Source of the DNA: an uncultured Actinomycetota bacterium
GTDB taxonomy: Bacteria; Actinomycetota; Acidimicrobiia; Spongiisociales; UBA4744
Reading direction: 5' to 3'
Assembly (NCBI GenBank): GCA_963718995.1
Contig: CAVRAP010000006.1
Span: 5,795 to 69,794, forward strand
Length of the DNA: 64,000 nt
Shown one piece after another: positions 6,244 through 53,328 of this stretch. The notes beneath the pieces were generated by a model. It saw nothing but the letters and a program-made list of their open reading frames with translations. It had not been told where the DNA came from and ran no database searches. The stretch's first letter is position 1; the number at the start of each line of letters is the position of its first letter. Position numbers and translations under genes: made by a program.

Positions 6244-6400
6244 CCCCCCTCCGCTTCTCGCCTTTTGGCGAGAACCACCTCCCCCCTTCTCGTCGAGCTT
6301 CGCTCGCACGTTTGGTTGGTGGGAGCGAGCCCCCCTCCGCTTCTCGCCTTTTGGCGAGAACCACCTCCCCCCTTCTCGTCGAGCTTCGCTCGCCAGGGGG
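6244..6400. repeat. tandem duplication (2 x ~88 bp) of a GC-rich palindromic element
   Basis: Unit 'cccccctccgcttctcgccttttggcgagaaccacctccccccttctcgtcgagcttcgctcgc' occurs twice. It contains the hairpin ttctcgcc-tttt-ggcgagaa. Sits between the convergent AKR and cbaA genes. Confidence 0.8.
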
Positions 6401-12173: not shown

Positions 12174-12687
12174 TCAAGAACCCGTCATCGTCGACGGGAA
12201 GCGGGTGCTTGGTGTGGTCCCCGGGAAACCCCCGGGTGGCGAGCGCAAGGTTCTCGATGAGCAAGAACCGGTGATGGTGTGGCCCCACCTCCTGATTCGC
12301 CACGGGGTGGCCGCGTTGGTCGTGATGGTCACCGTGCTCTTGCTGGCGTTGTTCTTCAACGCCCCTCTGCGCGAAATTGCCAACCCGTTGGTTACTCCCA
12401 ACCCGGAGAAGGCCCCGTGGTACTTCGCAGCGTTGCAGGAGTTGTTGAGTCATTTCCATCCGATGGTGGCCGGCGTACTCGTACCCGGCGCCATCATCAT
12501 CGGCCTCGCTGCCCTGCCCTACATGGACAGGAACCCGCAGTTGTCGCTGCGGTTCCGCAAGGTGGCGGTGGCGACCTTCACGGTGTTCATGGTGGTGTGG
12601 ATCATCCTGACGTTGATCGGCTTCATGTTTCGCGGTCCCAATTGGGGCTGGGTGTGGCCCTGGCAAGAGTGGTACGGAGAGCTATGA
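12163..12687 (+). CDS. cytochrome b C-terminal half / b6f subunit IV-like protein
   Basis: Three TM helices and a PEWY-box variant 'EKAPWYFAALQELL'. 11-nt overlap with the b6 gene. Confidence 0.75.
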   Translation: MMSSQEPVIVDGKRVLGVVPGKPPGGERKVLDEQEPVMVWPHLLIRHGVAALVVMVTVLLLALFFNAPLREIANPLVTPNPEKAPWYFAALQELLSHFHPMVAGVLVPGAIIIGLAALPYMDRNPQLSLRFRKVAVATFTVFMVVWIILTLIGFMFRGPNWGWVWPWQEWYGEL

Positions 12688-15916: not shown

Positions 15917-15937
15917 GGGTCCAGGGTAGAGGTGACC

Positions 15938-16123
15938 GGTTTCCAGTTTCCAGTTTCCAGTTCGTCCAGTAACCAGTTTCCAGTTATCAGTTATCAGTTA
16001 TCGGGTATCGGTATCAGAGAGTGGTATGCCGTTCGCTGGCTACTGGCTACTGGCTACCGGCTACTGGCTACTGGCTACTGGCTGACTGGCTGCTGGCTGC
16101 TGGCTACTGGCTACTGGCTACTG
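15938..16123. repeat. CAGT-core heptanucleotide tandem repeat array, inverted two-arm organisation
   Basis: Left arm (ccagttt)x3 then (tcagtta)x3 on the top strand. Right arm (ctggcta/ctggctg)x~12, which is (ccagtag)n on the bottom strand. Runs up to the stop codon of the MmpL gene. Confidence 0.9.
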
Positions 16124-20097: not shown

Positions 20098-21198
20098 TCA
20101 GGTACCGGCAACGAGAAGCGGAACCTGAAGCTCCTCCTTTGCCAGCCCGCCGTGATAGCCGGTCAGCCGCTTGTCCATGAAGCGGGGGATCAACAGGCGG
20201 CCCGGATCGGCAAGCAGGACCTTGTCCGGCAGTCGTCCGGCCAGGTCCGGATGGTCCCGGCCGGGCCCCAACCAGGTCCGGTACTCCGATGTCTCAACGA
20301 CCCGGCATGGCAGGCCGACGAGCGCCTTCGAGAGCTCGGCGTCGAACCGGCGCACCAGCACCGCTCGGGGGTCGCCGTAGAATTCTGGTCCCATCCGGTG
20401 CGGGATGAACGCCTTGTCGCCTTCGGCGTAGTCGATGTGCCCGTGATCGGCAGTTCCCACCATCACCGCGTGAGCCGGGAGGGCCGAGGCAATGCGGTCC
20501 CAGACGGCGGCCGCCGTCGAGATGGCTGCGGCGTACTCATCAGAGCCCTGGCCACCCACGTGGGCGGCCACGTCAACATTCGGGAAGTACGTGAAGATGA
20601 ACCGGCCGGGCACCGCAGCCAGCTGGGCGGTGGCGTCGATGATCTCGTTGATGGTCCACACGGCTTCATTGCGACATCCTCGATAGAGAACCCGGCTGAG
20701 CGGACTGTCCTGAAAGTTGCCGGGCTGCACGGTGATCGGCTCAATGTCATGGGCTCGCAAGCGCTGCCACAGGTTGGGGGCCGGCAGGAAGGAATCGTGG
20801 TCGAGGCGTACGGCTTCCCCCCAGGGTGTCGTCCACTTCAAGGTGTTCACGACCTGACCGGCGGCGGGAACATACAGTTGGTGCCCGATCAGACCGTGGG
20901 TCCCGGGCGCCAGCCCGGTGGCGATGGTCGCCAGGTTGGCGCTGGTCGTGGTGGGAAAGACCGCGTCGAGAGCCGCGGTCCGGGCGTTGCGGAGGGAAGC
21001 CGCCCCGGGGTGCTGGAGCTGGGCATCGCCCAAGCCGTCGAAAAGGACGAGCACGTAGGTGGCGGCCTCCGGGATGTGCCCGGCGAGGTGAGCGTGCAGC
21101 CGCTCGGCCGGGGCAGATCCGGTCAGGCGATGTTCGAGCTCCGCCATCAGGTTGAGCAGGCTGCCGCCGGCGTAGTCGGGAATGGAGGGTTCAATCAC
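20098..21198 (-). CDS. alkaline phosphatase-family (nucleotide pyrophosphatase/phosphodiesterase-like) metalloenzyme
   Basis: Metal-ligand pattern 'FDGLGD...T(T)(S)...DHGH' typical of the AP superfamily. GTG start at 21198. Confidence 0.6.
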   Translation of the reverse strand: MIEPSIPDYAGGSLLNLMAELEHRLTGSAPAERLHAHLAGHIPEAATYVLVLFDGLGDAQLQHPGAASLRNARTAALDAVFPTTTSANLATIATGLAPGTHGLIGHQLYVPAAGQVVNTLKWTTPWGEAVRLDHDSFLPAPNLWQRLRAHDIEPITVQPGNFQDSPLSRVLYRGCRNEAVWTINEIIDATAQLAAVPGRFIFTYFPNVDVAAHVGGQGSDEYAAAISTAAAVWDRIASALPAHAVMVGTADHGHIDYAEGDKAFIPHRMGPEFYGDPRAVLVRRFDAELSKALVGLPCRVVETSEYRTWLGPGRDHPDLAGRLPDKVLLADPGRLLIPRFMDKRLTGYHGGLAKEELQVPLLVAGT

Positions 21199-21307
21199 AG
21201 TTTCCAGTTTCCAGTTATCAGTTGTCAGTTATCAGTCATCAGTCATCAGTCATGAGTCATGAGTTATCAGTTGCCAGTTGCCAGTTGCCAGTTGCCAGTT
21301 GCCAGTC
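21197..21307. repeat. CAGT-core heptanucleotide tandem repeat array (unidirectional)
   Basis: (ccagttt)(ccagtta)(tcagttg)(tcagtta)(tcagtca)x3(tgagtca)x2...(gccagtt)x5. Lies in the divergent promoter region between 21198(-) and 21455(+). Confidence 0.9.
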
Positions 21308-21454
21308 AAGCACTCTCGCTATGCGCGAGATGCCGAATGACGGCTGTCGACCGAACCGGGGATTCGCCTAAATGTGACCTTTTGGCCTAGCTTGACGGGC
21401 CTATGGGACCCGTGTGTAACCACCGGTCATCTATAGCGTTTCATCACATAAACC

Positions 21455-24645: not shown

Positions 24646-25207
24646 TACCGCGGATTCTCAAGAGGTGCTCTTCGCCTATGCGGAGCACGTCGCCGACGTT
24701 CTCGACGCGGACCCGGTGGTAGCTCGTCATGGAACGGTCAAGGCGCACGTTCCGAGGGAGCGCTGGATCGAGGCCCTCACCAAGGCCCGGGACGATCTCG
24801 GTCTGGTTTTCTTCTCGTGGTTGTCCGCCATCGACTGGTCGAATCAGGTCGAGGTGGGGGATCCCCCTGCTGAGGAAGTCGACGAACGTCTCGAACTTCT
24901 GTGCACGATCAGCGACCTGTCCGAAGGCAAGCGGGTCACCATCTCCACCGAGGTTTCCAAGGACGACCCGACGATGCCGACGGCCACCGGCGTGTACCGG
25001 GGCGCCAACTGGCACGAACGGGAGACCTTCGAGATGTTCGGGATCGACTTCACCGGCCACCCCGACCTGAAAAAGCTCTACCTGGTTGAGGATTTCGAGG
25101 GGAACCCGCTTCGTAAGTCGTTCCCGTTGCTGAGCCGCGAAGTGAAACCGTGGCCCGGCACGGTGGATGTCGAGGCGATGCCGTCTACCGAAAATCCGGA
25201 GGCGTGA
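24626..25207 (+). CDS. nuoC: NADH-quinone oxidoreductase subunit C
   Basis: 30-kDa subunit fold: '[30 protein letters not shown]'. Confidence 0.85.
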
Positions 25208-26391
25208 TGGACCACGAAGCCGCCATGGCTCTCTCGGAAGTGTCCGTCTCCATCGAACTCGAAACTCCGGAGATGACGCTGAACATCGGACCACAGCACC
25301 CGTCAACGCACGGGGTTCTCCGCCTGGTTGCCCAGGTCGACGGCGAGCGGGTCCGCGATATCAAGCCGGTCATCGGGTACATGCACCGCGGGTACGAGAA
25401 GATCTCGGAAGTCCGTACGTACCCGCAGATCACCGCTCTGATCAATCGCCTCGACTGGGTCGCCGGGTACGCAAATGAAATCCCTTTCATCGTCGGCGCC
25501 GAGCGGCTGATGGAACTGGAAGTTCCCCCGCGCGCCCAGTACATCCGGCTGATCCTCACCGAGATGGCCCGGATCTCTTCCCATCTGATCTTTTGTGGTT
25601 CCTACCCGCTCGAGTTGGGGGCCGGGACCCCCATGTTCTTCGCTCTGCGGGAAAGGGAGCGGGTGCTCGATCTCATGGAGGCGGTCACCGGCGGCCGTTT
25701 CCACCTCAACTTCAACCGCCTGGGCGGTGTTAAACCGACAGCCGGGGCCGGTTCCAGCACCCGCAAGCAAATCCAGGACCTTCCCAAGGGTTTCTACGAG
25801 GGCACCCGGGCCGCCATGGGGCGGGTGCTCGGCGTGTGCGACGAACTGGACCAGCTCATCAGCGGCAACGAGATCCTCTTTGCGCGTACCAAAGGTGTCG
25901 GGGTGATGACACCGGAGCAAGCGGCCGCCTACGGGGTCTCCGGTCCCAATCTGCGCGGGTCGGGAGTTGCCTTCGATCTCCGCAAAGTCGAGCACTACCT
26001 GCCGTACGACCAGCTGGATTTCAACGTGATAACCCGCCAGGAAGGCGATTGCTACGCCCGGTACGCCGTGCGGGTCGACGAGGTCCGGGAGTCGGCCAAG
26101 ATGATCATCCAGGCGATCGATTCGATTCCCTCAGGACCGTTGCAGGCGAAGGTGCCGAAGATCATCAAGGTGCCAAAAGGCGAGACCTATATGCGGGCGG
26201 AGAACCCCAAAGGTGAGATGGGCTACTACATCGTCTCCGAGGGCGGCACCGGACCGTACCGCTTGAAGATCCGCACCGCCTCCTTCTCCAACATCTCCGT
26301 GCTGTCCGAACTCATGGAAGGTGCTTTGATCCCCGACATCGTTGCCATCATGGGCAGTTTCGACTTCGTCCTCGGCGAGGTGGATCGATGA
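25207..26391 (+). CDS. nuoD: NADH-quinone oxidoreductase subunit D (49-kDa)
   Basis: 'LNIGPQHPSTHGVLRL', 'YMHRGYEKI' and the C-terminal 'RTASF' region. ATGA overlap with nuoC. Confidence 0.9.
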   Translation: MDHEAAMALSEVSVSIELETPEMTLNIGPQHPSTHGVLRLVAQVDGERVRDIKPVIGYMHRGYEKISEVRTYPQITALINRLDWVAGYANEIPFIVGAERLMELEVPPRAQYIRLILTEMARISSHLIFCGSYPLELGAGTPMFFALRERERVLDLMEAVTGGRFHLNFNRLGGVKPTAGAGSSTRKQIQDLPKGFYEGTRAAMGRVLGVCDELDQLISGNEILFARTKGVGVMTPEQAAAYGVSGPNLRGSGVAFDLRKVEHYLPYDQLDFNVITRQEGDCYARYAVRVDEVRESAKMIIQAIDSIPSGPLQAKVPKIIKVPKGETYMRAENPKGEMGYYIVSEGGTGPYRLKIRTASFSNISVLSELMEGALIPDIVAIMGSFDFVLGEVDR

Positions 26392-26448: not shown

Positions 26449-26536
26449 TCAGTTTCCAGTTTCCAGTTTCCAGTTTCCAGCAAGGAGGCGGTCCTCGATT
26501 GCGGACTGGCTACTGGCAACTGGCTACTGGCTACTG
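26449..26536. repeat. CAGT-core heptanucleotide repeat array, inverted two-arm organisation, inside the nuo cluster
   Basis: (cagtttc)x4, then 'caaggaggcggtcctcgattgcgga', then (ctggcta/ctggcaa)x4. Fills most of the 163-bp nuoD-nuoH spacer. Confidence 0.9.
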
Positions 26537-26554
26537 CTTGCCTCCGCAGGAGGC

Positions 26555-27538
26555 GAGCGTATGAACTTCTGGCTCGAGCTGGCGATCAAGCTGGTCGTGA
26601 TCGGGGCCATGATCCCGCTGACGGCCTTGGTGCTCGGCTACGGAGAGTTGAAGATCTCGGCTCACATGCAGTCCCGGATCGGCCCGTATTTCGCCGGCGG
26701 CCGGTGGGGTTGGGCGCAGCTCCTGGCCGACGGGGTGAAGTTCATTCAGAAAGAAGACATCATCCCGGACAATGCCGACCGACCGGTCTTCAAGGTCGCC
26801 CCGGTGCTCGTGATGATCTCGACTGCCACGCTCTTCGTCATTCTCCCCTTCGGCCCGGGTGACGGGTTCATTGTCCGTGACCTCAACCTCGGCATCTTCT
26901 ACGCGCTGGCGATTTCCTCGGTCGGGACCATCGGGGTCTTGATGGCCGGGTGGTCGTCCGGGAACAAGTACTCCCTGATGGGGGGTCTCCGGGCGGCGGG
27001 CCAGTTGATCGCCTACGAGTTGCCGCTCGTGCTGGCCGTAGTCGGCGTCGTGATCCAGGCGGGCACCATGTCGATGCAGGGCATCGTCGATGCGCAGATC
27101 GCCCAGGGATGGCCGTATGTGTTCACCCAGTTCCTCGGGTTCTTCATCTTCCTCATTGCCGGACTGGCCGAGCTCAGTCGAACCCCGTTTGATATGCCGC
27201 TTGCCGAATCCGAGCTGATCTCCGGCTATCTGACCGAATACTCCGGTTTCCGGTTCCTCTTCTTCTACCTGGCCGAGTACGCCAGCATGTTCGCCGTTGC
27301 CGCCATCGCAACCACGTTGTTCCTCGGTGGCTATGCCTTCTGGGGCGTTTCGGCTTCCTGGACCGGGCCGATCTTCTTTGTTGGGAAGGTCTTGATGATC
27401 GGCTTCGTCATCATCTGGCTGCGCTGGACCTTCCCGCGTTTCCGTGAGGACCAACTGCAGACACTGGCCTGGAAATGGCTCATCCCGCTCGCCCTGGCCA
27501 ACATCCTCGTCACCGCGGTTCTCAAGGTGGTGTTCTGA
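26555..27538 (+). CDS. nuoH: NADH-quinone oxidoreductase subunit H
   Basis: 8-TM protein with the 'QSRIGPY...GLLQ'-type motif. RBS 'aggagg' at 26542. Trimmed from ORF 26342..27538. Confidence 0.9.
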
Positions 27539-30943: not shown

Positions 30944-32518
30944 ATGGGGTGGTTCGATAACGGGTGGGGCTTGAGCCTGATCGTGTTCCTGCCCCTGGTA
31001 GGCGCGGTCGCCGTGCTCTTCACCCCCAAGAAAAACGAAGCGGCCATCAAGGCGCTCTCGCTCGGGTTCACCGGAGTGACCCTGGTGCTTGCCACCCTCA
31101 TGGCCATCCGGTTCGATTTCGGAAACGCCGACATGTTCCAGTTCGGAACAAGTCTCACGTGGATCGAGTCGATCAACTCCGGCTATCACATCGGCATAGA
31201 CGGGATATCACTACCCCTCCTGGTGTTGTCCGCGTTCGTCACCGTGCTGGCCGTGATCTACTCGTTCAACCACTGGCCGGAACCGCACAACCCCAAAGGG
31301 TTCATGGCGTTGACGCTGGTGCTGGCCACCGGCATGAACGGCACCTTCGTGGCGCTCGACCTGGTGCTCTTCTTCGTGTTCTTCGAACTCGTGCTGCTTC
31401 CGATGTACTTCATGATCGGGATCTGGGGCGACAAGGCCGTTATGAAGATCCCCGGTTTCAACCGGGAGGTGGAGACCCGCCTGTACGCCTCCATCAAGTT
31501 CTTCCTGTTCACCCTGTTCGGGTCGGCCTTCATGCTGCTGGGCTTCCTGGCGCTCTACTACAAGTCGGGCGAGTTCGGGACCAAGACCTTCGACATCCCT
31601 GCCCTGATCGAACTCGCACCCAACTTCACCGGAACCTTCGGGTTCCTGGTGTTTGGAGCGCTGTTCCTGGGATTCGCAGTGAAGGTGCCGATGTGGCCCT
31701 TCCACACCTGGTTGCCCGACGCCCATACCGCCGCGCCGACCGTCGGGTCCGTGCTGCTGGCCGCCGTCCTCCTGAAGCTCGGTTCCTACGGGTTCATCAG
31801 GATCAGCATCCCGATCCTGCCGGAGATGGCGCGCGAGTGGGCCCCGGCCATCGCCATCCTGGCGGTGATCGGCATCATCTACGGGTCGCTGGCGTGTCTC
31901 GCCCAGACCGATATGAAACGGCTGATCGCGTTCTCCTCGGTCGGTCACATGGGTTTTGTGATGCTCGGCATCGCCTCGATGACCCCGGTCGGCATCAACG
32001 CGGCGATCATCGGCATGGTCGCTCACGGGGTCATCACCGGCCTCTTGTTCTTCGTCGCAGGTTCGATGTCGCACCGCTACCACACCCGCGACATGGCCCG
32101 CCTGGGCGGCAACATGAAGGTCATGCCGATCATGGGTGGCATCCTCGGGTTCACCGCCATGGCCTCCCTCGGCTTGCCCGGCCTGGCCGGGTTCTGGGGC
32201 GAATTCATGGCCCTCTTCGGTGCGTACAGTCCGCTGGCCGGCCTCAACACGACACTGTTCAGGACTGCCATGGTGCTCGGCGCGATCGGCACCGTGCTGA
32301 CGGCCGGCTACATGCTGTGGATGCTGCAGAAGGTCAACCTGGGCGAACCGTCCGCCGAATGGGAAGGCAAGTCCTTCCACGACGTCGACGCGTACGAACT
32401 GACGGCCTGGGTTCCGCTGGTGGTCGTGATCGTGGCGATCGGGGTGTTCCCCCGCCTGGTGCTGGGCGCCACCAACGACGCGGTGGTTTCCATGCTGACG
32501 ACAGCGTTTGGGGGCTGA
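30944..32518 (+). CDS. nuoM: NADH-quinone oxidoreductase subunit M
   Basis: 524-aa antiporter-like subunit. Confidence 0.9.
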   Translation: MGWFDNGWGLSLIVFLPLVGAVAVLFTPKKNEAAIKALSLGFTGVTLVLATLMAIRFDFGNADMFQFGTSLTWIESINSGYHIGIDGISLPLLVLSAFVTVLAVIYSFNHWPEPHNPKGFMALTLVLATGMNGTFVALDLVLFFVFFELVLLPMYFMIGIWGDKAVMKIPGFNREVETRLYASIKFFLFTLFGSAFMLLGFLALYYKSGEFGTKTFDIPALIELAPNFTGTFGFLVFGALFLGFAVKVPMWPFHTWLPDAHTAAPTVGSVLLAAVLLKLGSYGFIRISIPILPEMAREWAPAIAILAVIGIIYGSLACLAQTDMKRLIAFSSVGHMGFVMLGIASMTPVGINAAIIGMVAHGVITGLLFFVAGSMSHRYHTRDMARLGGNMKVMPIMGGILGFTAMASLGLPGLAGFWGEFMALFGAYSPLAGLNTTLFRTAMVLGAIGTVLTAGYMLWMLQKVNLGEPSAEWEGKSFHDVDAYELTAWVPLVVVIVAIGVFPRLVLGATNDAVVSMLTTAFGG

Positions 32519-34013
32519 TTTGTCACCGGACATCGACTACCTCGCGCTGGCGCCGGAGATCACTCTGGCGGTGACGGCCGTGGTCGTCCTGTTGCTCGAC
32601 CTGTTCCTGCCTCGGAGCCAGAAGTACTGGACGGCCATCGTCGCGGTACTGGGAGTCAGCTTTGCCGCTCTTCCGCTGATCGCCCTGGCCGTCAGCGACG
32701 TCGGGACGCGGAGCATGCTCGGCGGCAGCTTCGTCGTCGATGACTTCGCCCTCGTGCTCAAGGGACTGTTCGTGGTGGCCGGGTACCTGGTGCTGCTCAT
32801 GTCGGTCAGTTACATCGAGTCCGACCGTTACTACCAGGGCGAGTACTACTTCCTGATGCTCATGTCGATTCTCGGCACCGTGGTGCTGGCCTCGTCCCGT
32901 GATCTGATCACCATGTTCATCGCCATCGAATTGGTGTCCCAGCCGATGTACCTGCTGGCCGGATGGCGCAAGGGTGACCTGCGGTCCAACGAGGCGTCGC
33001 TCAAATACTTCCTGCTCGGGGTTCTGGCCTCGGCTCTCATGCTCTACGGCATGTCGTTCGTGTACGGCCTCACGGGTGAGCTGACGTTCGCGGGCATTGC
33101 CGCAGCCGGAGCCGGAATGGCAGGCGACCCGGGATTCATCATGGCGATCCTCTTCATGATCGCCGGGTTCGGCTTCAAGGTGTCGGCCGTGCCGTTCCAC
33201 TTCTGGGCGCCGGATACGTATGAAGGCGCACCAACCCCGGTGACCGCCTACCTGTCGGTATCGTCGAAGGCGGCGGGGTTCGTGGCTTTGCTGGTGGTGC
33301 TCTATTCGGCGTTCCCGGACGCGGCCGGGGTGTGGGGCCCGGCCATCTGGATCCTGGCGGCCCTGTCGATGACGCTGGCCAACCTGACCGCTTTGCGGCA
33401 AACCAACATCGTCCGGCTGCTGGCCTACTCGTCGGTCGCCCAGGCGGGGTTCATGCTGGTGCCGTTCGCGGCGGCCGCCACGACGGATCAGATCGGGCTG
33501 GGGGAGGCCTTTGCCGCCACCGTCACCTACATCGTGATCTACGCCTTCATGAACCTGGGCGCCTTTGCGGTGGTCATTGCCGGTGCCCGCAAGACCGGCA
33601 CGGGCGATATCGAAGGTTGGGGTGGGCTTGGTTCGTACGCCCCGGGTATCGGACTTCTGGCCGGGGCTTTCTTCTTCTCCCTGGCCGGCATCCCGCCCCT
33701 GGCGGGCTGGATCGCCAAACTGGTCATGTTCAGTGCGGCTATGGGGGCCGGATCGGCCTGGATGGTGGCCCTGGCCGCGATCGCCGCAGTGAACGCGGTG
33801 ATCGCCCTCTTCTACTACGCACGGGTCGTCAAGACGATCTGGATGGACCCGGTCCCGGCCACGGCCCCCGACGAAGAGGTGCGGACCGGTCCGGTGGCGG
33901 GGTCGCTTGGCCTCGCTCTCGGACTGTCGGTGGCGGTGGTGGTGGCGGCCGGTTTCTTCCCCTCCCTCGTCACCTTCTTCTCCGATGCCACCAAGGTGCT
34001 CGCCGGCGGTTAG
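32508..34013 (+). CDS. nuoN: NADH-quinone oxidoreductase subunit N
   Basis: 501-aa antiporter-like subunit. TTG start overlaps the end of nuoM. Confidence 0.85.
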   Translation: MGADLSPDIDYLALAPEITLAVTAVVVLLLDLFLPRSQKYWTAIVAVLGVSFAALPLIALAVSDVGTRSMLGGSFVVDDFALVLKGLFVVAGYLVLLMSVSYIESDRYYQGEYYFLMLMSILGTVVLASSRDLITMFIAIELVSQPMYLLAGWRKGDLRSNEASLKYFLLGVLASALMLYGMSFVYGLTGELTFAGIAAAGAGMAGDPGFIMAILFMIAGFGFKVSAVPFHFWAPDTYEGAPTPVTAYLSVSSKAAGFVALLVVLYSAFPDAAGVWGPAIWILAALSMTLANLTALRQTNIVRLLAYSSVAQAGFMLVPFAAAATTDQIGLGEAFAATVTYIVIYAFMNLGAFAVVIAGARKTGTGDIEGWGGLGSYAPGIGLLAGAFFFSLAGIPPLAGWIAKLVMFSAAMGAGSAWMVALAAIAAVNAVIALFYYARVVKTIWMDPVPATAPDEEVRTGPVAGSLGLALGLSVAVVVAAGFFPSLVTFFSDATKVLAGG

Positions 34014-34628: not shown

Positions 34629-36703
34629 ATGCCGGTAGACGAAGACAAGTCCCCGCAACGCAAGGCCGCCAAGAAACCCGCCGCCAAGAAACCGGCGGCG
34701 CCGCCCGCCTCTCCGGCCTCCCCGGCGAAACCAACCGCCGGAACGCCGGCCGCCCAACCACCTGCGGAGGCAGCCTCCGCCGATCTGCCCTATTTCAGCC
34801 TGCTCACCGAAGACGACCTGTTCCTGTTCAACGAAGGCTCGCACTTCCGGCTCTACGAGAAGCTGGGTTGTCATCTCGTCGAGGTAGAAGGCGTGGCCGG
34901 GGCCTATTTCGCTGTGTGGGCGCCGGACGCCGAGTACGTGTCGGTGATCGGGGACTTCAACTTCTACAACCCGGGCGAGCACCCGCTCAAGCCGAAAGGA
35001 GCCTCGGGGATCTGGGAGGGGTTCATCCCCGGGATCGAACAAGGCGAGACGTACAAGTTCCACATCGGCTCCAAGTTCAACGTGTACCGGGTGGACAAAG
35101 CCGACCCCTTCGCGACCTACTCCGAGGTGCCGCCCAAGACGGCCTCTCGCGTCTGGGATCTCGCTTACGAGTGGGGTGACGCTGACTGGATGAAGGTCAG
35201 AGAGGTCCATAACGCCCACAACGCCCCCATATCGATCTACGAGATGCACCTGGGCTCGTGGCGGCGGGTTCCCGAGGAGGGCAACCGGTCGCTCACGTAC
35301 CGGGAGACCGCTCCTCTGCTGGTCGAACACCTCCAGAAGATGAACTTCACGCATGTGGAGTTCCTGCCGGTCATGGAGTATCCGTTCGGTGGTTCGTGGG
35401 GATACCAGTCGACCGGCTACTTCGGTCCGACCTCCCGATTCGGTAGCCCGGAGGACTTCATGTTCCTCATCGACACGCTGCACCAGGCGGGGATCGGCGT
35501 GATCGTCGACTGGGTGCCTTCGCACTTCGCCACCGACGAGCACGGCCTCGGCTATTTCGACGGCACGCACCTGTACGAGCATTCGGACGAGCGCGAAGGG
35601 CTTCCATCCCGACTGGGGGAGCTGGATCTTCAACTACGGCCGCAACGAGGTGCGCAGCTTCCTCATCTCCAGCGCCATCTCCTGGCTGGACCGGTATCAC
35701 ATCGACGGGATCCGGGTTGATGCGGTCGCCTCGATGCTGTACCTCGACTACTCCCGCGAAGACGGCGAGTGGATCCCCAACGAGTACGGCGGCAACGAGA
35801 ACATCGAAGCGATCACTCTGCTGCGGCGGTTCAACGAGGAGGTCTACCGCCAGTTCCCGGACGTGCAGACCTTCGCCGAGGAATCGACCGCCTGGCCGTC
35901 GGTGTCCCGGCCCGACCTACATCGGCGGACTCGGGTTCGGCTTCAAGTGGGACATGGGATGGATGCACGACACCCTGGCCTACATGCAACTCGATCCGCT
36001 GTTCCGTCAGTACCACCACAACGACCTGACGTTCCGGGGTCTGTACGCCTTCACGGAGAGTTTCACGCTGCCGCTCTCCCACGACGAGGTGGTGCACGGC
36101 AAGGGTTCGCTGGCCGCCAAGATGCCGGGCGACGACTGGCAGAAGTTCGCCAACCTGCGCCTGCTCTACGCCTACATGTTCGCCCAGCCCGGCAAGAAGC
36201 TGCTGTTCATGGGCGGCGAGATCGCCCAGTGGGCCGAGTGGAACCACGACGGTTCGCTGGCCTGGGACCTGCTGGATTGGGAACCGCACCGCGGCATCCT
36301 CAAGCTGGTCGGCGACCTCGGCCGGGTCTACCGGGATGAGCCGGCGCTCTACGAGTGGGACACCGACGACCGCGGCTTCGAATGGGTGGAGGCCAACGAC
36401 TGGCAGGCGAGCACCCTCTCATGGTTGCGACGGGGCGGGTCGACCGACGACATCATCCTGGCCATCTTCAACTTCACCCCGGTCGCCCGGTACAACTACC
36501 GCATGGGCGTGCCGCGCGAGGGCCACTGGGAGGAGATCCTCAACACCGACGCCGCCGATTACGGTGGCAGCGGTCTGGGCAACCTCGGAGGGGTGGAAGC
36601 TCACAAGACCGGCGCCCACGGCCGGCCGTTCTCGGTGAATCTGACGTTGCCTCCCCTGGGGGCGGTGTTCCTGAAGAGTTCTCAGGAGCTGAGTTCCCCG
36701 TAA
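34629..36703 (+). CDS. glgB: 1,4-alpha-glucan branching enzyme with Ala/Lys/Pro-rich N-terminal extension (two apparent frameshifts near 35595 and 35915)
   Basis: GH13 motifs '[13 protein letters not shown]', '[17 protein letters not shown]', 'FAEESTAWP' and '[13 protein letters not shown]'. The three ORFs 34629..35720, 35650..36339 and 35717..36703 are successive frames of one gene. Confidence 0.8.
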
Positions 36704-36746
36704 CCAGTTGCCAGTAACCAGTAATTGGCAGTTCCAGTTGCCAGAA
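36699..36746. repeat. short CAGT-core heptamer array
   Basis: 'aaccagttgccagtaaccagtaattggcagttccagttgccag' overlaps the glgB stop. Confidence 0.7.
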
Positions 36747-36761
36747 TGTGCTGGATGACTG

Positions 36762-38154
36762 ATGACTGATGGCTTTTCTCTGAAGCAGCGACTGATCGAA
36801 CAGATCCGGGTTGAGGGTCCGATGCCGTTCGAGGATTTCATGGCGGCAGCCCTCTATGACCCCGAGGATGGGTTCTTCACGTCCAAGTCTCTGCGGTCCG
36901 TCAAGTCCGGCGATTTCCTGACCAGCCCCGAAGTAAGCCCCCTCTTCGGCGAAACCCTCGCCAAGTTCGTAGACCAGGAACTCTCCACCCTCCCCCTCAC
37001 CCCCTCCCGCCGGCGGGAGGGGGAAAGAGAAACGACGCCCCGCCGCCCACGCCGGGGCAGGTGCCCTGACCGCGCGGGTCGATGCGCAGAACTCCCTCTC
37101 CCGCTGGCGGGAGAGGGTTGGGGAGAGGGTGGAAGAGGCCGCACGGAAGAAGACAGTCTCCAGCCAGGAAGACACCCCAGACTACGTCCTCCCCCGGCTC
37201 TGCCGGGGGAGGTGGCCCGGCCCAAAGGGCCGGGTCGGAGGGGGCAGGTCCCCGAACAGTCCGATCGAGAGCAGGACTCCCTCTCCCGCTGGCGGGAGAG
37301 GGTTGGGGAGAGGGTGGAACCAACCCCGCTCCTCGTCGAGGTCGGAGCCGGTTCCGGGTCGCTCCTCAAACCCCTCCTCGCCACCCTCGAGACCCCGATC
37401 GAGCCCTGGGCCGTCGAGGCATCCCCGGCCGCTCGTGAGGCTCTGGGAGAGCTGATCGATCCCGACCACATCGTCCGCACCCTCGACGATCTGCCCGACC
37501 ACTTCTCCGGCGTCGTGGTCGCCAACGAACTCCTGGACAATCTGCCGGTCGCCATCGCCGTCCGCACCGGTCATGGCTGGACGGAACGCTGGGTAGGAGT
37601 CCAAGACGATGATCTGGTCCTCGTCCCCGTCGACGCTCGCCCCGAGGTCGCCGACATGGGCCGAGCAATTCGGCCTCCCCGCCCCCGAACGAGGCCTGGT
37701 CGAGGTGCAACTGGCCGCAGCGGAGTGGCTGCAATCGATCCTGACCCGTCTCGACTCGGGAACGATCCTGTTGATCGACTACGGCGACACCGCCGAGAAC
37801 CTGGAGAAGCGGCGGGTGGAGGGAACCCTCCGCACCTACCGGGCCCACCACCTCGGCCCCCACCCCCTCGACGAACCGGGAGAGACCGACATCACCGCCG
37901 ACGTCAACTTCACGGCGCTGATCGATCGAGCCGTGCAACTGGGAGCGAGCATCGAGTACCACCGCCAGGACGACTTCCTCGACCAGTTCGGGTTGCGAGC
38001 CCGCCTCAGCAAACTCCGCCACCAAGAACTGGACCTGGCCCGCGACGGCGACCCGATGGAGCGATTGAAGGTGCGGTCCACCCGGACCGAAGCCGAGACG
38101 CTGCTCCACCCGCGTGGCCTGGGCGACTTCCGTGTCCTGGTGGTCCGAAAGTGA
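36762..38154 (+). CDS. MidA/NDUFAF7-like SAM-dependent methyltransferase (DUF185), interrupted in frame by a repeat insertion and carrying an apparent frameshift near 37660
   Basis: N-terminal 'PMPFEDFMAAALYDPEDGFFTSK...GDFLTSPEVSPLFGE', SAM site 'LVEVGAGSGSL' and a C-terminal part in ORF 37609..38154. The 606-aa ORF 36762..38582 is the N-terminal part followed by an out-of-frame run-on. Confidence 0.65.
36990..37330. repeat. three copies of a GC-rich palindromic element (core cctctcccgc-tg-gcgggagagg) inserted in frame in the MidA-like gene
   Basis: 'ctccctctcccgctggcgggagagggttggggagagggtggaa' occurs at about 37086 and about 37270. A variant 'ccctcccgccggcgggaggggg' occurs at about 37005. 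The insert translates to 'LPLPLAGEGWGEGG'. Confidence 0.8.
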
Positions 38155-38204: not shown

Positions 38205-40430
38205 TTACGGCGTAAGCAACAGGGCTGCGTCGGCGGTGATGAACCCTGCACCGTCGGCGTCGCCAGCGTCACCTTTGGCAACACCCCAACAAATCTCCTC
38301 CGAAGCCCCCGAAGGTTCGAGGAGCACGGTCCTGCAACCATATTCCATCCCAATGGCAGCCTCCTCAAGGATGGTTTCGACCTCCCACTGTTCGAGTCCC
38401 GGGTTCTTCTGCAGCATGAGGGCTGCGATGCCGGCAACGTGGGGGCTGGCCATCGACGTGCCTCCGAGGAAGAAGTAATTCGTCTTTCCCCGGTTCAGTT
38501 GGTAGGGGCCGACGACCCACGACCCGGGGAGCGGCCACATCCAGATCCTGACCATCTAGCTCCCGACTGGAGAAGTCGGTGATGTAGTAGTCGCCAACGT
38601 CCGTCGGGTCCGCAACGTTCACGTTCCACCACCAGGAGCGATTCCCATCTGGCCACTCGCCAACCCAGCCGCTGGCCGCGACCGAGATCACCGGTTCGTA
38701 GGCACCCGGATAACCCATTCCGAGGTTGCCCTCGTTGCCTGCCGATGTGACGACAATCACTCCGTTCTCAATGGCGTAGTCGTTGGCTGCCCTCTCTACG
38801 GGCTCCTGGACAGGACCGCCGAGACTCATGTTGATGACGACTGGGCCGTCGAGGACACCATCCTTCTTCAAGTTGGCGACGTAGGTAATGCCAGCCGCTA
38901 CCACCGATGACCCCCATCCGGAGCCATTGTCGCGGCACTGTGACCGGGATGACCGTCGCCATCGGGGCTACGCCGTTGATCGGCGTGCCGCCCAGGCTGT
39001 AGCCCAGGATGGTGCTGGTCACGTGGGTGCCATGCGAGTTGGTGTCATGTTCCCACTTATTGGGCTGTTCGGAGATGTTTCCCTGCCCTCCTCCACCGCC
39101 GCCAAATGACTTCGCCAGGTCGGTCGCGATCCGCTCTTCGGGGAGGTTGCCCCACGTGTGCCATATACCACCGGTGTCGATCACGGACGTCAACGGCGTT
39201 GACCACGACTGGAATAACGCTTGGTAGAGCCCTGCGATTCCTTCAGGGGCGGTACGTTCCATCAGAGGAAGGAAGTCGCTGGGGACTGCCGTCTGCGCCA
39301 CCGATAGAGCCGTTCGCGACCTGATGATTGACCCTCAATGAACGGCTTGTCACCACCGTTGCTGCGAAGAAACCGTCAGATCCCGAAGGATGCTGCAGCA
39401 TTCACAGCGGCGGAGAGGTCATCGTCGATGGCTGACCGTAGCTCGAACCGAGGGACATGTTGATGGTGTCGATCAGGTCCTTGGCTTTACGGTCCACGTC
39501 GGGTCGACTGCGAACTCCATGCCCTGGATGAGCGCAATTCCCGAGCAAGATGTCGAAACGGACGAGCAAACCTTCACGGCGTACAGCTCGACTCCTGGAG
39601 CAACGCCGTTTTCGCCGCCGATGATGTCGGCGACATGGGTTCCGTGTCCGCCTCCGGGTCCGTCATCCGGCGGATAACGTCATCTGGTTCCTCGAGCGCG
39701 TTGCCCCTACCAACCCAGTTGGATCCAACGAAGTCGTAGCCTCCGACAACCTTGGCGGTCGGGAACGTGCCATCTTCGACCACTGTCGGGTTGTCGTTGG
39801 CGAAGTCGATACATCAGCTGGATTGCCAATGGGGTGCCACCGAGGGCGGCGTGGTAGTAGTCGATGCCGCTGTCGAGCACCGCGACCTTGACTCCAGATC
39901 CGTCGACGCCAGCGTTCTGAACGGCTGCTGCCGCCGATATAGGGAACCGTTTCGCTCAGGTCGAGTTCGTAATTGCCAACTTCCTTGATTCGCAGCAGAC
40001 CGATGAGTCGGAAGCCAGGTCGGTGAGCTGAGCAGCGTCGATCTTACGAACACTGCGTTTAGGACTCTCTGCGTACCGGCGAGCTCCTTGGCACCTGTCG
40101 CCGTCTCAGGCTGGCCAGGAATTGGTCTGCTCTTGCTGGGACCTCAACGAGGGCTTGCCGCGGCCACGGCTTGCCGCACTCGGCCACGGAGGCCGGTGAG
40201 CGCTCAACCTGATGCTGACGTCAATCTCGCCCGCGTCGCTCGACTCGAGAACGTCTTGTCGGCGGCGCTGGCCGTTATCGGCGAGTCCAGTTTGAGACCT
40301 CATCGAATCTGGCTCGATCGACTCGATCGGTGCTGCCTCTTCGCTCCGACGGTACGGCGAGTGCCAACATGGTCAAGAGCGCGACGATCAGTACAACGAA
40401 ACGTTTCACGAGATGCCCTCCTCGTATCTC
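38205..40430 (-). pseudogene. subtilisin-like (S8) serine protease, disrupted by multiple frameshifts
   Basis: The catalytic triad is split across frames: 'VIDTGG' and 'HGTHVTS' in 38768..39301, and 'GTSMASPHVAG' in 38205..38555. A putative signal peptide 'KRFVVLIVALLTMLALAVPSE' sits in 40275..40553. At least four frame changes. Confidence 0.55.
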
Positions 40431-42039: not shown

Positions 42040-42350
42040 GCCGCTGCGGTACTTGCCACCCTCTCCGCGTCGCCGCCTGTGGCAGCGACGCGCCTCTCCC
42101 GCTTGCGGGAGAGGCTGGGAAGGCGTGGTGTGTGTTGGTTGGGTGGGGCGGTCTCGCGGGAGGATGTCTTGCCACCCTCTCCGCTTCGCCGCCTGTGGCA
42201 GCGACGCGCCTCTCCCGCTTGCGGGAGAGGCTGGGAAGGCGGGGTGTGTGTTGGTTGGGTGGGGCGGTCTCGCGGGAGGATGTCTTTTCACCCTCTCCGC
42301 TTCGCCGCCTGTGGCAGCGACGTGCCTCTCCCGCCGGCGGGAGAGGCAAG
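42040..42350. repeat. tandem array (~2.7 x 118 bp) of GC-rich palindromic element containing cctctcccgc-tt-gcgggagagg
   Basis: Unit 'caccctctccgc.tcgccgcctgtggcagcgacgcgcctctcccgcttgcgggagaggctgggaaggcg.ggtgtgtgttggttgggtggggcggtctcgcgggaggatgtctt' is repeated. Confidence 0.85.
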
Positions 42351-42364
42351 GCAATGGGCTGTTG

Positions 42365-43100
42365 TTACCTGGTGGGGACTTCGATGGTGTAGGTGCCGTT
42401 GCCGGGGATGAACCAGGCCGCCTGGGCTCCGTATTGACGGAGTCCTTCGACCAGCACCCGGGCGCCGGGTGTTCCGTCGGCTCCAACAATGAGCAAGTCT
42501 CCCCTCGGTGTCGGAGACCAGGACCCAGGCGCCGTCTGGCGACCATTGCGCCTCGACGAAGCTGTAGTCGGCTGGAGCACCCTCGACGGAGAGAATGGTC
42601 TGATCGGAGCCGTCGACGCGCACGATCACCGACGTTGCTCCATCCCGGCTGCCTTCGATGCGAACCCGGGCGCCGTCGGGGCGTTCTGTCCTCGTATCCG
42701 ACGGATAGGGGAGTGGTACCGTCGGGTCGGGTTGATTGCCCTGGGGAACCCGGTCAACCTCCGTTCCGGTGCTCGGGTCGATCAGCAGGTAGGTGGGTTC
42801 TGCGTTGTAGTCGAGGACTACGAGCAGGCCGTCGGCGGTCCAGGAGGGGTACTCAACGTAGTTCATGCTGCACCAGACTTCCCGGGTGTCGCCCCCGGAA
42901 GCGGGCACAGTCGTCAAACACTGCGTGTCGCCGAATTCCACATACGCAACGGTGCCGGGAATCGACGGGTCGGGTTGGTCGGTGAGGGACGGGAAATCGG
43001 GCAGCGGGATGACGCCGAAAACGAAGATGACCGCCGTCACCACGGCCAGCACCGACACAGCCCCCACGATCGAAACGATGGCCCGTCGCTCCGGTTTCAT
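42365..43100 (-). CDS. membrane-anchored beta-propeller (TolB/WD40-like) protein, apparent frameshift near 42500
   Basis: N-terminal TM helix and repeated 'DG' beta-strand segments. ORFs 42288..43100 and 42365..42580 join as '...LVSDTEGRL/LIVGADGTPGARVLVEGL'. Confidence 0.45.
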
Positions 43101-49669: not shown

Positions 49670-49752
49670 TGCCTTTGGCAGTGATCAGTACTCAGTCTTC
49701 AGTCGTCAGTACTGATAACTGGCAACTGACAACTGCGGCACGAAGTGCCGCT
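49670..49752. repeat. CAGT-core heptamer array plus 7-bp GAAG-loop hairpin (gcggcac-gaag-gtgccgc)
   Basis: (cagtgat)(cagtact)(cagtctt)(cagtcgt)(cagtact)(gataact)(ggcaact)(gacaact), then the hairpin. Lies in the rplK-rplA spacer. Confidence 0.8.
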
Positions 49753-50559: not shown

Positions 50560-51340
50560 TTGGTGGTGTGCCGGCCTGAGCTTTGTTGGTGGTGTGCCGT
50601 CCCCCCTCCGCCTCGCTGCGCTCGGCACCTCCCCCCTTCCTACTCACTTCGTTCGCAGGGGGGAGGGGTTCGCAGGGGGGAGGGCTTCGCAGGGCGGGGA
50701 GGGAGGTTGGGGAGAGGGCTTGGGGGTCCTCGTTCTCGAGCGAGGGCACGGTGGTTCCTTGGTGGGAACCTGGACTGACGGCGGTGCGAAGGCCGTCCCG
50801 CTGCCGCTCTTCTACGGCGATACGTCAGGGTAGGGGCTGTCGTATCGCCGGAGTGACACCGGTGCCCGTTCGTGCCTCGGTCTTGGGTGGGGGCGGTTGA
50901 CAACCACCCTTGGACAAGGACCCCCAAAGCAAAACGTTGAGTTGTCAACCGGAGTGTCGCGCAATGCGCGGCGTGTGTCTACTCGTTTTGGTGTTGAAGG
51001 TCTGCGGGTCTTTGTTGGTGGGAACCATCCCCCCTCCGCCTCGCTGCGCTCGGCACCTCCCCCCGTCTTGCTCACTTCGTTCGCCGGGGGGCGCGAGGCA
51101 TCCCCTCTCCGCCTGGCTGCGTCGGCACCTCCCCCCGTCTTGCTCACTTCGTTCGCCGGGGGGAGGGCGCGAGGCATCCCCTCTCCGCCTGGCTGCGCTC
51201 GGCACCTCCCCCCGTCTTGCTCACTTCGTTCGCCGGGGGGCGCGAGGCATCCCCTCTCCGCCTGGCTGCGTCGGCACCTCCCCCCGTCTTGCTCACTTCG
51301 TTCGCCGGGGGGAGGGGAGCGAGGCATCGACTTGGCGTTG
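50560..51340. repeat. ~0.8-kb block of GC-rich repeats in the rplA-rplJ leader (direct 22-bp duplication, inverted gttgacaac...gttgtcaac, and ~4.5 tandem ~64-bp units)
   Basis: Tandem unit 'ctcgctgcgctcggcacctccccccgtcttgctcacttcgttcgccggggggcgcgaggcatcccctctccgcctgg' from about 51030 to 51335. Related copies lie at 50600-50720. Confidence 0.85.
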
Positions 51341-51499: not shown

Positions 51500-52609
51500 A
51501 TGCCAAGACCTGAGAAGGTCCAGGCAGTTGAAAAGATACGAGAGCAGTTCGGCGAAGCCCGGGCTACCTTCGTGACCGAGTATCGCGGTCTGACGGTCGG
51601 CGAGCAGCAAGAGTTGCGCCGGAGCGTGCGGAAGGCCCAGGGCGAGTACCAGGTTCTCAAAATGTCCCTGGCGCGCAGAGCTGTCGAGGACATGTCCCTC
51701 GAAAGCCTGTCGGAACTGCTCGTCGGACCGACCGCCCTTGCGTTTGCCAACCACGACGCGGTTTCGGTTGCGAAAGTCCTTCGGGATTTTGCATCCGAGC
51801 ATGACAAGCTGATCATCAAGGGAGGAATCCTCGGCGAGGTCTTTTTGCCGCCCGAGCAGATCTCTCGATTGGCCGACATTGAACCGCGAGACGTCTTGCT
51901 GTCCAAGATCGCCGGCGGTTTCAAGGCACCGTTGTCCAAGATGGCCGGATTGCTCGGCGCCAAGATACGTGACGCTGCATCGATGTTTTCTCAACTGCTG
52001 GAAAAGAAGGAAGCAGAAGCGCCGGAGGTTGAAGAGGCTCCCGTCGCGGTTGCCGTCCCAACCGACGTAGTGACTGAGGAGGCTCCTGCCGCTGTGGTTG
52101 AGGAGGTTGCCGAGGTTGTGACTGAGGAGGCTCCTGCCGCTGTGGTTGAGGAGGTTGCCGAGGTTGTGACTGAGGAGGCTCCTGCCGCTGTGGTTGAGGA
52201 GGTTGCCGAGGTTGTGACTGAGGAGGCTCCTGCCGCTGTGGTTGAGGAGGTTGCCGAGGTTGTGACTGAGGAGGCTCCTGCCGCTGTGGTTGAGGAGGTT
52301 GCCGAGGTTGTGACTGAGGAGGCTCCTGCCGCTGTGGTTGAGGAGGTTGCTGAGGTTGTGACTGAGGAGGCTCCTGCCGCTGTGGTTGAGGAGGTTGCTG
52401 AGGTTGTGACTGAGGAGGCTCCTGCCGCTAAGGCCGAAGCACCTAAGAAACCGGCACCAAAGAAATCGGCACCCAAGAAACCGGCACCAAAGAAACCGGC
52501 ACCAAAGAAGAAGCCCGCTCCCAAGGCCAAGGCCGAAACGAGTACGGCAACAGCAGATGCTGACACGGCACCTGCTGACGGATCCGACGACACCGCCAAG
52601 GAGGAATAG
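51500..52609 (+). CDS. rplJ: 50S ribosomal protein L10 with ~185-aa C-terminal extension (7 x 17-aa acidic repeats + PKK-rich basic tail)
   Basis: Canonical L10 core '[33 protein letters not shown]...'. Then ([16 protein letters not shown])x7, encoded by seven near-identical 51-bp units at 52069..52426. Then '[32 protein letters not shown]'. Confidence 0.9.
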
Positions 52610-53052: not shown

Positions 53053-53165
53053 AGTTTCCAGTCGGTCGGCCTGCGGCCGACCTCTCAGTTTCCAGTATCC
53101 AGTATCTGGCTATCCCAGGCCCGGGTAACTGGTAACCGGCAACCGCCAACTGCCAACTGGCGACG
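53052..53165. repeat. CAGT-core heptamer array with internal palindrome ggtcggcctgcggccgacc
   Basis: 'cagtttccagtcggtcggcctgcggccgacctctcagtttccagtatccagtatctggctatccc...ggtaactggtaaccggcaaccgccaactgccaactgg'. Confidence 0.8.
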
Positions 53166-53328
53166 CTTACCCTTGACCTGGCCCTCCCGGATGCGGTAGG
53201 TTCTACTTCACAAGCCCCGCAGATGGGCAGCTGTTTGCGGATGCAAATCTTTAGTTGTCGCCTCGTTAGTCGCGTGCTAACCTGGCGTTTCGTCGTCTGC
53301 AGCCATCCCAGGGCCCAAGGAGCAACAC

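Follow-up and report, generated by a model that had tools for sequence, protein, structure and literature searches.

Palindromic repeats in frame within a loop of a probably functional MidA-family methyltransferase gene from an uncultured actinobacterium

Rickettsia palindromic elements (RPEs) insert in frame in many genes, at positions compatible with the fold of the protein, as far as the cited accounts describe them (Ogata 2000, Science 290:347; PMC10969869). By analogy, they are the closest known phenomenon to the locus described here, a gene of the MidA family (PF02636; DUF185, COG1565) for an S-adenosylmethionine (SAM)-dependent methyltransferase in a 64-kb stretch of contig CAVRAP010000006.1, the whole of which we call the window. 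Between its N-terminal segment and its SAM-binding motif, the gene carries about 335 nt of palindromic repeats and other hairpins, and further downstream its frame is shifted by one base. Comparison with related loci makes it likely that the gene is functional, that its loop was colonised in frame by a palindromic element and that the frameshift is technical. In the history that we propose, a functional MidA/COG1565 gene near the nuo genes of an uncultured actinobacterium of Acidimicrobiia type would have received a stop-free GC-rich element in the loop between the FVDQEL helix and strand β1 of the Rossmann fold. The arriving element would have resembled a repetitive extragenic palindromic (REP) doublet forming a hairpin (REPIN) or a miniature inverted-repeat transposable element (MITE), with two inverted 41-nt units, and would have arrived by transposition. 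A second block of hairpin spacer plus unit was presumably added in the window's lineage, giving the present ~335 nt. Translation of the insert would give a disordered loop of ~110 residues, with no damage to the catalytic fold, and the base at 37655/37656 would be a single-base assembly insertion error.

The family of the gene is established, because the Pfam match, the PDB sequence matches and the fold comparison agree, the last placing the same structures first. The N-terminus of the product is typical of MidA/DUF185 (...SGDFLTSPEVSPLFGETLAKFVDQEL), with the N-terminal MidA segment GDFLTSPEVSPLFGE at residues 50-64. In the uncorrected frame, the open reading frame (ORF) beginning at 36762 matched PF02636 at residues 190-284 (profile 21-132, 58 bits), and ORF 37609-38154 gave a separate match (profile 145-242, 76 bits); the gathering cut-off of this profile, Methyltransf_28, is 23.3 bits. 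Removal of one base at 37655/37656 yielded a single continuous match (profile 21-240 of 249, 142 bits). The corrected protein matched PDB entries 4f3n (E 2e-36), 1zkd and 5ztz (Dictyostelium MidA) by sequence. An AlphaFold model was built on 35 sequences, with a mean predicted local distance difference test score (pLDDT) of 76 and above 90 in the core. Foldseek returned 4f3n (E 5e-20), 1zkd (3e-18) and 5zu0/5ztz (1e-17) as its top matches, with target-normalised template modelling scores of 0.67-0.76, followed by generic methyltransferases at E ~1e-4. Identity to the solved structures was 18-24%, and an NCBIfam search of the protein matched no equivalog model. Motif I was recognised by the class I criterion, GxGxG at the end of β1. 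These matches agree with the first-pass annotation of this DNA, made by a model from the sequence alone, which had named an NDUFAF7/MidA-like (MidA/DUF185) methyltransferase gene. The C-terminal half was 90% identical to residues 213-387 of the homologue in L001, a close relative. The ratio of nonsynonymous to synonymous substitution rates (dN/dS) of the core was 0.11-0.14 in every pair, including the window, among lineages with 16 to 108 extra codons; by this measure, the MidA core is shown to be under purifying selection. Scanning for promoters and terminators was uninformative for MidA, and the hairpin directly after the stop codon is absent from the output because it lacks a T tail.

The spacer from GDFLTSPEVS to VEVGAGSGS is 396 nt in the window and 72 nt in 54 of 66 related loci, a net gain of 324 nt, or 108 codons, over the ancestral spacing; the initial estimate of 330 bp or about 110 codons was therefore accurate. 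The edges of the insert are two inverted units, copies A and C. In each unit, a 10-bp hairpin precedes a repeat of its own right arm, and the 24-nt palindrome of the unit, CCCTCTCCCGCTGGCGGGAGAGGG, had no match in 100 shuffles. Copy A (41 nt) is 85% complementary to copies B and C (inverted repeats I1 and I2), and B and C are 98% identical over 49 nt. As first proposed, the insert contains palindromic repeats and keeps the reading frame: three copies were located, and frame 0 is open. The further proposal, that the inserted codons derive from three palindrome copies, was right in the number of copies, but these units (one inverted, two direct) cover only ~125 of the ~335 bases and are read in differing frames and orientations; other hairpin modules make up the remainder. 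The module at 37188-37253 recurs in L107 (94%) and L004 (88%) and in part in L002 and L030. As single-stranded DNA, the insert folds far better than its shuffles (z = -6.4). Alignment with L004 and L030 resolved the window into two copies of a composite 'hairpin spacer + unit', copy B being part of the second, window-specific block. The two composite spacers have diverged to ~60-70% identity, whereas their units are nearly identical; the extra block is therefore not an assembly duplication. An intein or intron was considered and rejected, as the insert consists of short hairpins, has no intein blocks and contains nothing that Pfam finds. An Rfam scan of 36600-37500 at E <= 1 produced only sub-threshold microRNA and internal ribosome entry site noise and no known RNA family.

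A scan of species-representative genomes yielded 69 loci, all from metagenome-assembled genomes, mostly labelled Acidimicrobiia or Actinomycetota and in a minority otherwise; spacers were compared over the 66 related loci. MidA is present at the locus in relatives, and the alignment of orthologues with and without the insert set the 72-nt majority against 99-396 nt in the window's clade. Among the nine expanded loci of this clade and its neighbours, the spacer is 99 (L005), 120 (L002), 171 (L001), 210 (L061), 276 (L030), 321 (L003) and 396 nt (window) in the seven that are in frame, and 125 (L062) and 247 nt (L004) in the two that are out of frame (binomial P = 0.008 against one third). L004 and L062 both come from one long-read sample (MFD09964) and are probably error-rich assemblies, judged for L004 from its counted private indels and for L062 from its source. 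Units A and C occupy the same site in L001, L004 and L030 and in the short-read contigs L105/L106 and L108; MidA is intact in these short-read contigs (408 aa in L105/L106 and 399 aa in L108), and the insert-bearing intact ORFs of close relatives span 370-413 aa. L001 holds the inverted doublet A + C alone, a REPIN-like 111 nt or 37 codons, and L004 and L030 hold A + C plus the hairpin spacer.

The insert thus proved common to independent assemblies. An assembly artefact, a chimeric or duplicated stretch around hairpin-forming repeats, is scarcely credible: it would suit the ~120-nt copy-B block, which is private to the window, and the indel errors of the assembly, but copies A and C and the hairpin module recur at this site in four further assemblies, of which two are short-read, and the strongly different composite spacers are not expected of a spurious duplication. 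Of the 120 best database homologues, ~44 are longer by 28-110 residues at precisely this site, with the recurring repeat-derived peptide motifs SLSRRRERVGERVE, VPPASGASVGGKVPQPERSEGWGRGA, FPSPSGGDIERP and GGKYRSGEAAGVGG; these inserts belong to at least three repeat families and are spread over at least four clades. In a neighbour-joining tree of the core, the insert-bearing proteins fall in at least four clades, interleaved with insert-free sisters, which indicates that the loop has been hit repeatedly or that inserts have been lost repeatedly. On these alignments, the insert is judged to be real and old. The initial alternative of an 'unusual tolerated insert' fits well, as the ORFs of relatives are intact and under purifying selection with these or other repeat units at the site. 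In another clade (P0032, P0036, P0040 and P0067), a second MidA insertion site was seen after 'AL..LPP' (alignment A1, columns 368-438), filled by PYPRPSGAAVLSPQGGDR-type repeats alongside an insert at the first site.

The insert is open in frame 0 without a stop codon, and four of its six frames are open throughout; 28% of dinucleotide shuffles were also stop-free in frame 0. Units A, B and C are read in three different ways, and the translation includes GEGWGEGGR and ERVGERVEPTPLLVEVGAGSGSLLK. The same hairpin module is read in different frames among orthologues (PPPALPGEVARPKGPGRRGQ in the window, SSPGSAGGGGPAHGAGSEGAG in P0003), which suggests that, for most of the insert, the peptide sequence is not what is kept. 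In the AlphaFold model, the insert lies between helix 60-75 and strand 190-195, the SAM motif strand. Residues 82-174 are coil (pLDDT 31-49), a helix, at residues 169-180, is predicted for copy C, and the remaining fold is confident. The equivalent loop of 4f3n has three residues, and no solved homologue has an insert there. Since the change in length is a multiple of three and the units are stop-free, we infer from the DNA, rather than from the protein, that the insert is translated as a tolerated, disordered loop of ~110 residues; this is the simplest reading. If so, a SAM-methyltransferase can accommodate 10 to 110 additional residues, for the most part disordered, just before its cofactor-binding strand, and Rickettsia is not the only setting in which selfish palindromic DNA adds to proteins.

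Unit C is 95-100% identical among five orthologues (L001, L004, L105, L108 and the window), against 74-87% in the next 300 nt of coding DNA, and in P0001, P0002, P0005 and P0006 it is read in the same frame as in the window, as SLSR(R/W)RERVGERVE. Protein-level selection, a constraint on the hairpin or gene conversion may each underlie this conservation, and we make no choice among them. It could also mean that the insert has been recruited, as a disordered tether, a helix before β1 or an mRNA structure setting MidA expression relative to nuo. The predicted helicity of the peptide, its common frame in at least five orthologues and the contrast of a conserved unit with a diverged neighbouring spacer agree with recruitment. 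We nevertheless regard it as rather improbable, as other clades have unrelated repeat families or none at the site, orthologues read the same hairpin module in different frames, most of the insert is modelled as disordered (pLDDT 31-40), and gene conversion or hairpin constraints could conserve the unit instead. An ancestral loop RERERIG that mimicked the unit (RERVGERV) and attracted it was set aside, because the nearest insert-free proteins, P0014 and P0050, lack the motif.

Sequences related to the unit are dispersed. A 33-nt core, TCTCCCGCTGGCGGGAGAGGGTTGGGGAGAGGG, was found by exact search to be identical in 35 metagenome contigs (L070-L104) of 46-73% GC, whose flanks are unrelated and none of which encodes MidA. 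Homology in these contigs ends sharply at the unit borders, and a related unit in opposite orientation is often nearby. A family-2 hairpin (GTCCCCCCAGCGAGCG...TGGGGGG) likewise occurs outside MidA, in five Acidimicrobiia loci. Because of the identical core in unrelated contigs and the family-2 hairpin outside MidA, the units are best read as dispersed sequences and not as products of local slippage. Slippage or expansion of a low-complexity loop, with no insertion of a repeat element, would explain why neither the rest of the window nor the flanks of close relatives yielded the unit, and simple tandem peptide repeats do occur at the site in some homologues, such as FPSPSGGDIERP in P0025. This explanation is very improbable in view of the 35 contigs with their identical core and sharp borders, the five loci with the family-2 hairpin, and copy A, which is inverted relative to B and C and is not a slippage product.

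The frameshift was located by DNA alignment with five relatives (L030, L001, L004, L003 and L002). The site reads GCC GAC A TGG, within GCCGACATGG, and all five relatives read GA-NTGG, without the extra base; tblastn against the relatives placed the change of frame at 37627-37655. With a slash at the break, frame 0 reads ...DARPEVAD/MGRAI and the +1 frame ...T/WAEQFGLPAPERG, where all homologues have ARPEVxxWAEQFGLPAPERG. The frame change displaces the C-terminal 47% of the 351-aa core; the frameshift first noticed near 37660 is thus real as a feature of the sequence, while the displaced part is larger than the third then stated. A plot of GC content at third codon positions was too noisy in this 63% GC genome, and tblastn against relatives took its place, together with a codon-usage frame scan.

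The break in MidA is one of at least eight in 64 kb, spread over six unrelated genes (at least seven in the five others). The five that can be aligned, at 35595, 35914, 37656, ~42500 and ~43558, are all +1 insertions private to the window in comparison with the five relatives, and none of the breaks in glgB, the TolB-like gene or the DUF2157-like gene lies in a homopolymer. glgB is intact (685-727 aa) in L001-L004 and L106. The subtilase gene is in pieces, with its His motif in 38768-39301, its middle in 38365-38904 and its Ser motif GTSMASPHVAG in 38205-38555; this region is not conserved in the relatives and so could not be aligned. In the GltD-like gene, Pyr_redox_2 profile positions 3-42 lie in ORF 9560-10393 and positions 99-291 in ORF 10186-11442. 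L030, the closest relative (91-96% DNA identity), shows eight private insertions and no deletion in a 10-kb block, and in L004, 21 indels have lengths not divisible by three, and nuoL and nuoM are split; the contig names of both look like long-read assembler output. In short-read contigs of relatives, glgB (685 aa) and MidA are intact. Between the window and L001, dN/dS is 0.12 and does not exceed that of the other pairs. On account of the private +1 breaks, the error-rich L030 and L004, the intact genes of short-read relatives and the ordinary dN/dS, the frameshift is probably an assembly error and not a mutation of the organism.

A 'recently inactivated gene', the other alternative offered at first, would imply a real frameshift in MidA, perhaps together with its neighbours, and a repeat insert that marks a gene on its way out. 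The change of frame is in the sequence, and glgB, the S8 peptidase gene and the TolB-like and DUF2157-like genes are all broken within 35.6-43.6 kb while nuo and EF-Tu are intact. We consider inactivation unlikely, because the broken genes are functionally unrelated and a further break lies at ~10.2 kb, the alignable breaks are all private +1 insertions, the signature of the errors in L030 and L004, where even nuoL/nuoM are split, dN/dS is ordinary, and insert-bearing orthologues are intact in short-read assemblies. Programmed frameshifting and transcriptional slippage were rejected, as GCCGACATGG has no slippery motif and no motif is common to the other breaks. A practical lesson is that frameshifts in such assemblies should not be taken as pseudogenes without read support. 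The N-terminal domain (ORF 11352-12170) and the C-terminal domain (ORF 12106-12684) of a cytochrome b were also seen in different frames of the plus strand; this split at 11352-12684 could be a natural petB/petD-like arrangement or another frameshift.

Several observations weigh against in-frame colonisation of a functional gene by a mobile element. The 41-nt unit has no further copy in the 64-kb window or in ~60 kb of close-relative flanks, and within the 69 loci it occurs only inside MidA; its distribution does not show mobility within this genome. No target-site duplication was seen at the insert borders in the window and in L001, and no REP-associated tyrosine transposase (RAYT) or other transposase was identified, no search aimed at RAYT having been made. 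The copy-B block has no counterpart in any relative. For the window alone, the chance of an insert that is both in frame and stop-free is ~0.09, weak evidence of coding. The alignable breaks cluster at 35.6-43.6 kb, with 8.6 kb of nuo genes clean, which could also reflect a locally decaying region. By analogy with described elements, a sequence that works like a REPIN or a MITE is supported, and membership in either family is not. We still find in-frame colonisation, with a technical frameshift, the likely account.

A broader proposal is more tentative, and we give it slightly less than even weight. The helix/β1 loop of MidA may be a recurrent landing pad in a broad group of uncultured Acidimicrobiia, entered independently or in nested fashion by at least three REP-like families that are translated, with SLSR(R/W)RERVGERVE more constant than the surrounding gene. 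If true, it would represent RPE-like protein evolution by selfish DNA in free-living high-GC Actinomycetota, involving an element with an identical 33-nt core in unrelated bacteria of 46-73% GC.

MidA lies 2.75 kb beyond the end of nuoN (34013), close to the 2.7 kb first given, with glgB in between, and the order nuoL-M-N, glgB, MidA is found in all five close relatives. In seven further loci (L005, L019, L028, L043, L061, L062 and L069), MidA follows nuoN directly on the same strand, without glgB, after a gap of ~150-280 nt (MidA at about 10001 in most); identity to the query is only 51-62% in these loci, which fall in different sub-clades. In about 50 other Acidimicrobiia loci, no nuo gene lies within 10 kb of MidA. 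The association of MidA with complex I is suggestive on this gene order, and the recurrence in seven distant loci makes the link to complex I, which the first-pass annotation called functionally suggestive, stronger than was visible from the window alone. A motif search found GPQHPSTHGVLR in the NuoD of the window, the arginine of which we take to be Arg-85 of NDUFS2. In human NDUFS2, this arginine is symmetrically dimethylated by NDUFAF7 (PMC3829151), and the account cited reports the same modification in the complex I of Paracoccus denitrificans (PMC8042128, citing Carroll 2013). In phmmer, the window protein matched Dictyostelium MidA at E 3e-15 over residues 12-112 only, with 18-19% identity in the fold alignment, and it is closer to the Burkholderia COG1565 protein than to Dictyostelium MidA. 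With such low identity and no NCBIfam equivalog, orthology with eukaryotic NDUFAF7 is no more than putative, and by analogy the enzyme may methylate NuoD. The nuoN-MidA adjacency suggests that the NuoD arginine methylation known from mitochondria and Paracoccus also operates in Actinomycetota. The features are compiled in Table 1.

Table 1. Features of the MidA locus and of other genes in the window (window coordinates)
Feature	Position	Strand	Basis or remark
Whole MidA/PF02636 gene	36762..38154	+	463 aa once one base is removed (351-aa core and insert)
N-terminal MidA segment, up to the helix ending FVDQEL	36762..36983	+	Translation; alignment with 34 homologues
Repeat-derived insert, aa 75-186	36984..37318	+	~335 nt, between the FVDQEL helix and SAM motif VEVGAGSGS
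Palindromic unit copy A, inverted	36984..37024	-	DNA TCCACCCTCCCCCTCACCCCCTCCCGCCGGCGGGAGGGGGA; read as STLPLTPSRRREGE; same place in L001, L004 and L030
Palindromic unit copy B	37093..37133	+	Read as LPLPLAGEGWGEGG
Two more hairpins, CCTCCCCCGGCTCTGCCGGGGGAGG and GGCCCGGCCCAAAGGGCCGGG	37188..37253	+	Fold; module also in relatives
Palindromic unit copy C	37278..37318	+	DNA TCCCTCTCCCGCTGGCGGGAGAGGGTTGGGGAGAGGGTGGA; read as SLSRWRERVGERVE
SAM-binding motif I VEVGAGSGSL, strand β1	37335..37364	+	Columns nearly invariant (35 sequences); model strand E190-195
Extra base giving the +1 frameshift; one of the two bases is inserted	37655..37656	+	DNA alignment with L030, L001, L004, L003 and L002
C-terminal half of MidA, +1 frame	37657..38154	+	Pfam profile 145-242; stop codon 38152-38154
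GC-rich hairpin GGGGCCGCCC AACT GGGCGGCCCC, right after the MidA stop codon	38155..38178	+	Read from the sequence; no T run
nuoD, homologue of the eukaryotic NDUFAF7 substrate	25150..26391	+	Pfam Complex1_49kDa, 1.6e-83
nuoN, last gene of the nuo cluster	32508..34013	+	Pfam Proton_antipo_M, 1e-65
glgB, broken twice (private +1, ~35595 and ~35914), three frames	34629..36703	+	CBM_48, Alpha-amylase and Alpha-amylase_C domains
Subtilase (Peptidase_S8) gene, three overlapping ORFs in three frames	38205-39301	-	Two more frameshifts implied
TolB-like secreted protein gene, private +1 insertion	~42500	-	Against five relatives
DUF2157-like membrane-protein gene, private +1 insertion	~43558	-	Against five relatives
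GltD-like gene (Fer4_20, Pyr_redox_2, Fer4), split	9560-11442	+	Probable frameshift near 10110-10243

The window holds other repeats. Intergenic arrays of 7-nt period, (CCAGTTN)n, lie at 15929-16153, 21197-21320, 26449-26559, 36690-36740, 49678-49710 and 53121-53175; one of them falls within the 58 nt that separate glgB from the MidA start codon, and at MidA Tandem Repeats Finder reported only 7- and 14-nt repeats upstream of the start codon. At 42052-42399, a 116-nt unit stands in three tandem copies, each containing GCCTCTCCCGCTTGCGGGAGAGGC, a palindrome more loosely related to the MidA unit; the relatives of the palindrome seen at 42092-42347 are all of this looser kind. L001 has only ~50 nt at the place of this array, which therefore appears to have expanded in the window's lineage. 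Clusters of GC-rich repeats at 6242-6393 and 50597-51314 contain 66 nt twice at 100% identity and units of 67-149 nt four to five times. A tandem array of 24-nt period at 51966-52513, which has 14 in-register copies and then 15-nt repeats of the GCACCNAAGAAACCG type, probably encodes a lysine/alanine/proline-rich repeat protein. Several unrelated families of short repeats abound in the genome.

RPEs, as far as the accounts cited above describe them, enter unrelated protein-coding genes and are translated, with the host gene remaining functional; the locus likewise has short palindromic repeats in frame that would add a peptide at a fold-compatible position, in a host gene that is here presumably functional. 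Insertion in frame with the host ORF kept, at such a site, was found in seven of nine loci and in ~44 proteins, with dN/dS at 0.11-0.14. The sequences are unrelated to RPEs as those accounts present them, being GC-rich 41-nt units, in contrast to AT-rich elements of ~150 bp, and the host belongs to a free-living high-GC actinobacterial lineage, unlike Rickettsia with its reduced intracellular genome. One loop of one gene is entered here repeatedly by several families, whereas in Rickettsia, on the same accounts, many genes are entered once each, and the units here are read in several frames, with no conserved element-encoded peptide across the site. The MidA enzyme itself shares PF02636, the fold and SAM motif I with MidA/NDUFAF7 (PDB 5ztz/5zu0; PMC3829151) and COG1565 proteins (4f3n, 1zkd), and it is linked to the genes of complex I, whose 49-kDa subunit, the NuoD homologue, is the eukaryotic substrate; it differs in its 18-24% identity to the solved structures, in matching no NCBIfam equivalog and in its loop insert, which the solved homologues lack. 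With REPs and REPINs (Bertels and Rainey 2011, PMC3116915; PMC3337134), the units share a GC-rich imperfect palindrome of 20-40 nt and an arrangement of two inverted units with a short spacer, as in the 111-nt doublet of L001, with no visible target-site duplication. REPs are extragenic by definition and number tens to hundreds of copies per genome, whereas the units here are intragenic, with no second copy in 64 kb; over the window and the 69 loci, many dispersed extragenic copies were not found. Finally, the element resembles intragenic MITEs (ERIC, BOX and those of Anabaena; Delihas 2007; PMC10969869), as the cited accounts portray them, in being small and non-autonomous, with terminal inverted repeats and an open frame that extends the host ORF, and it differs from them in having no known target-site duplication or parent insertion sequence, in being much shorter and in its nested hairpins.

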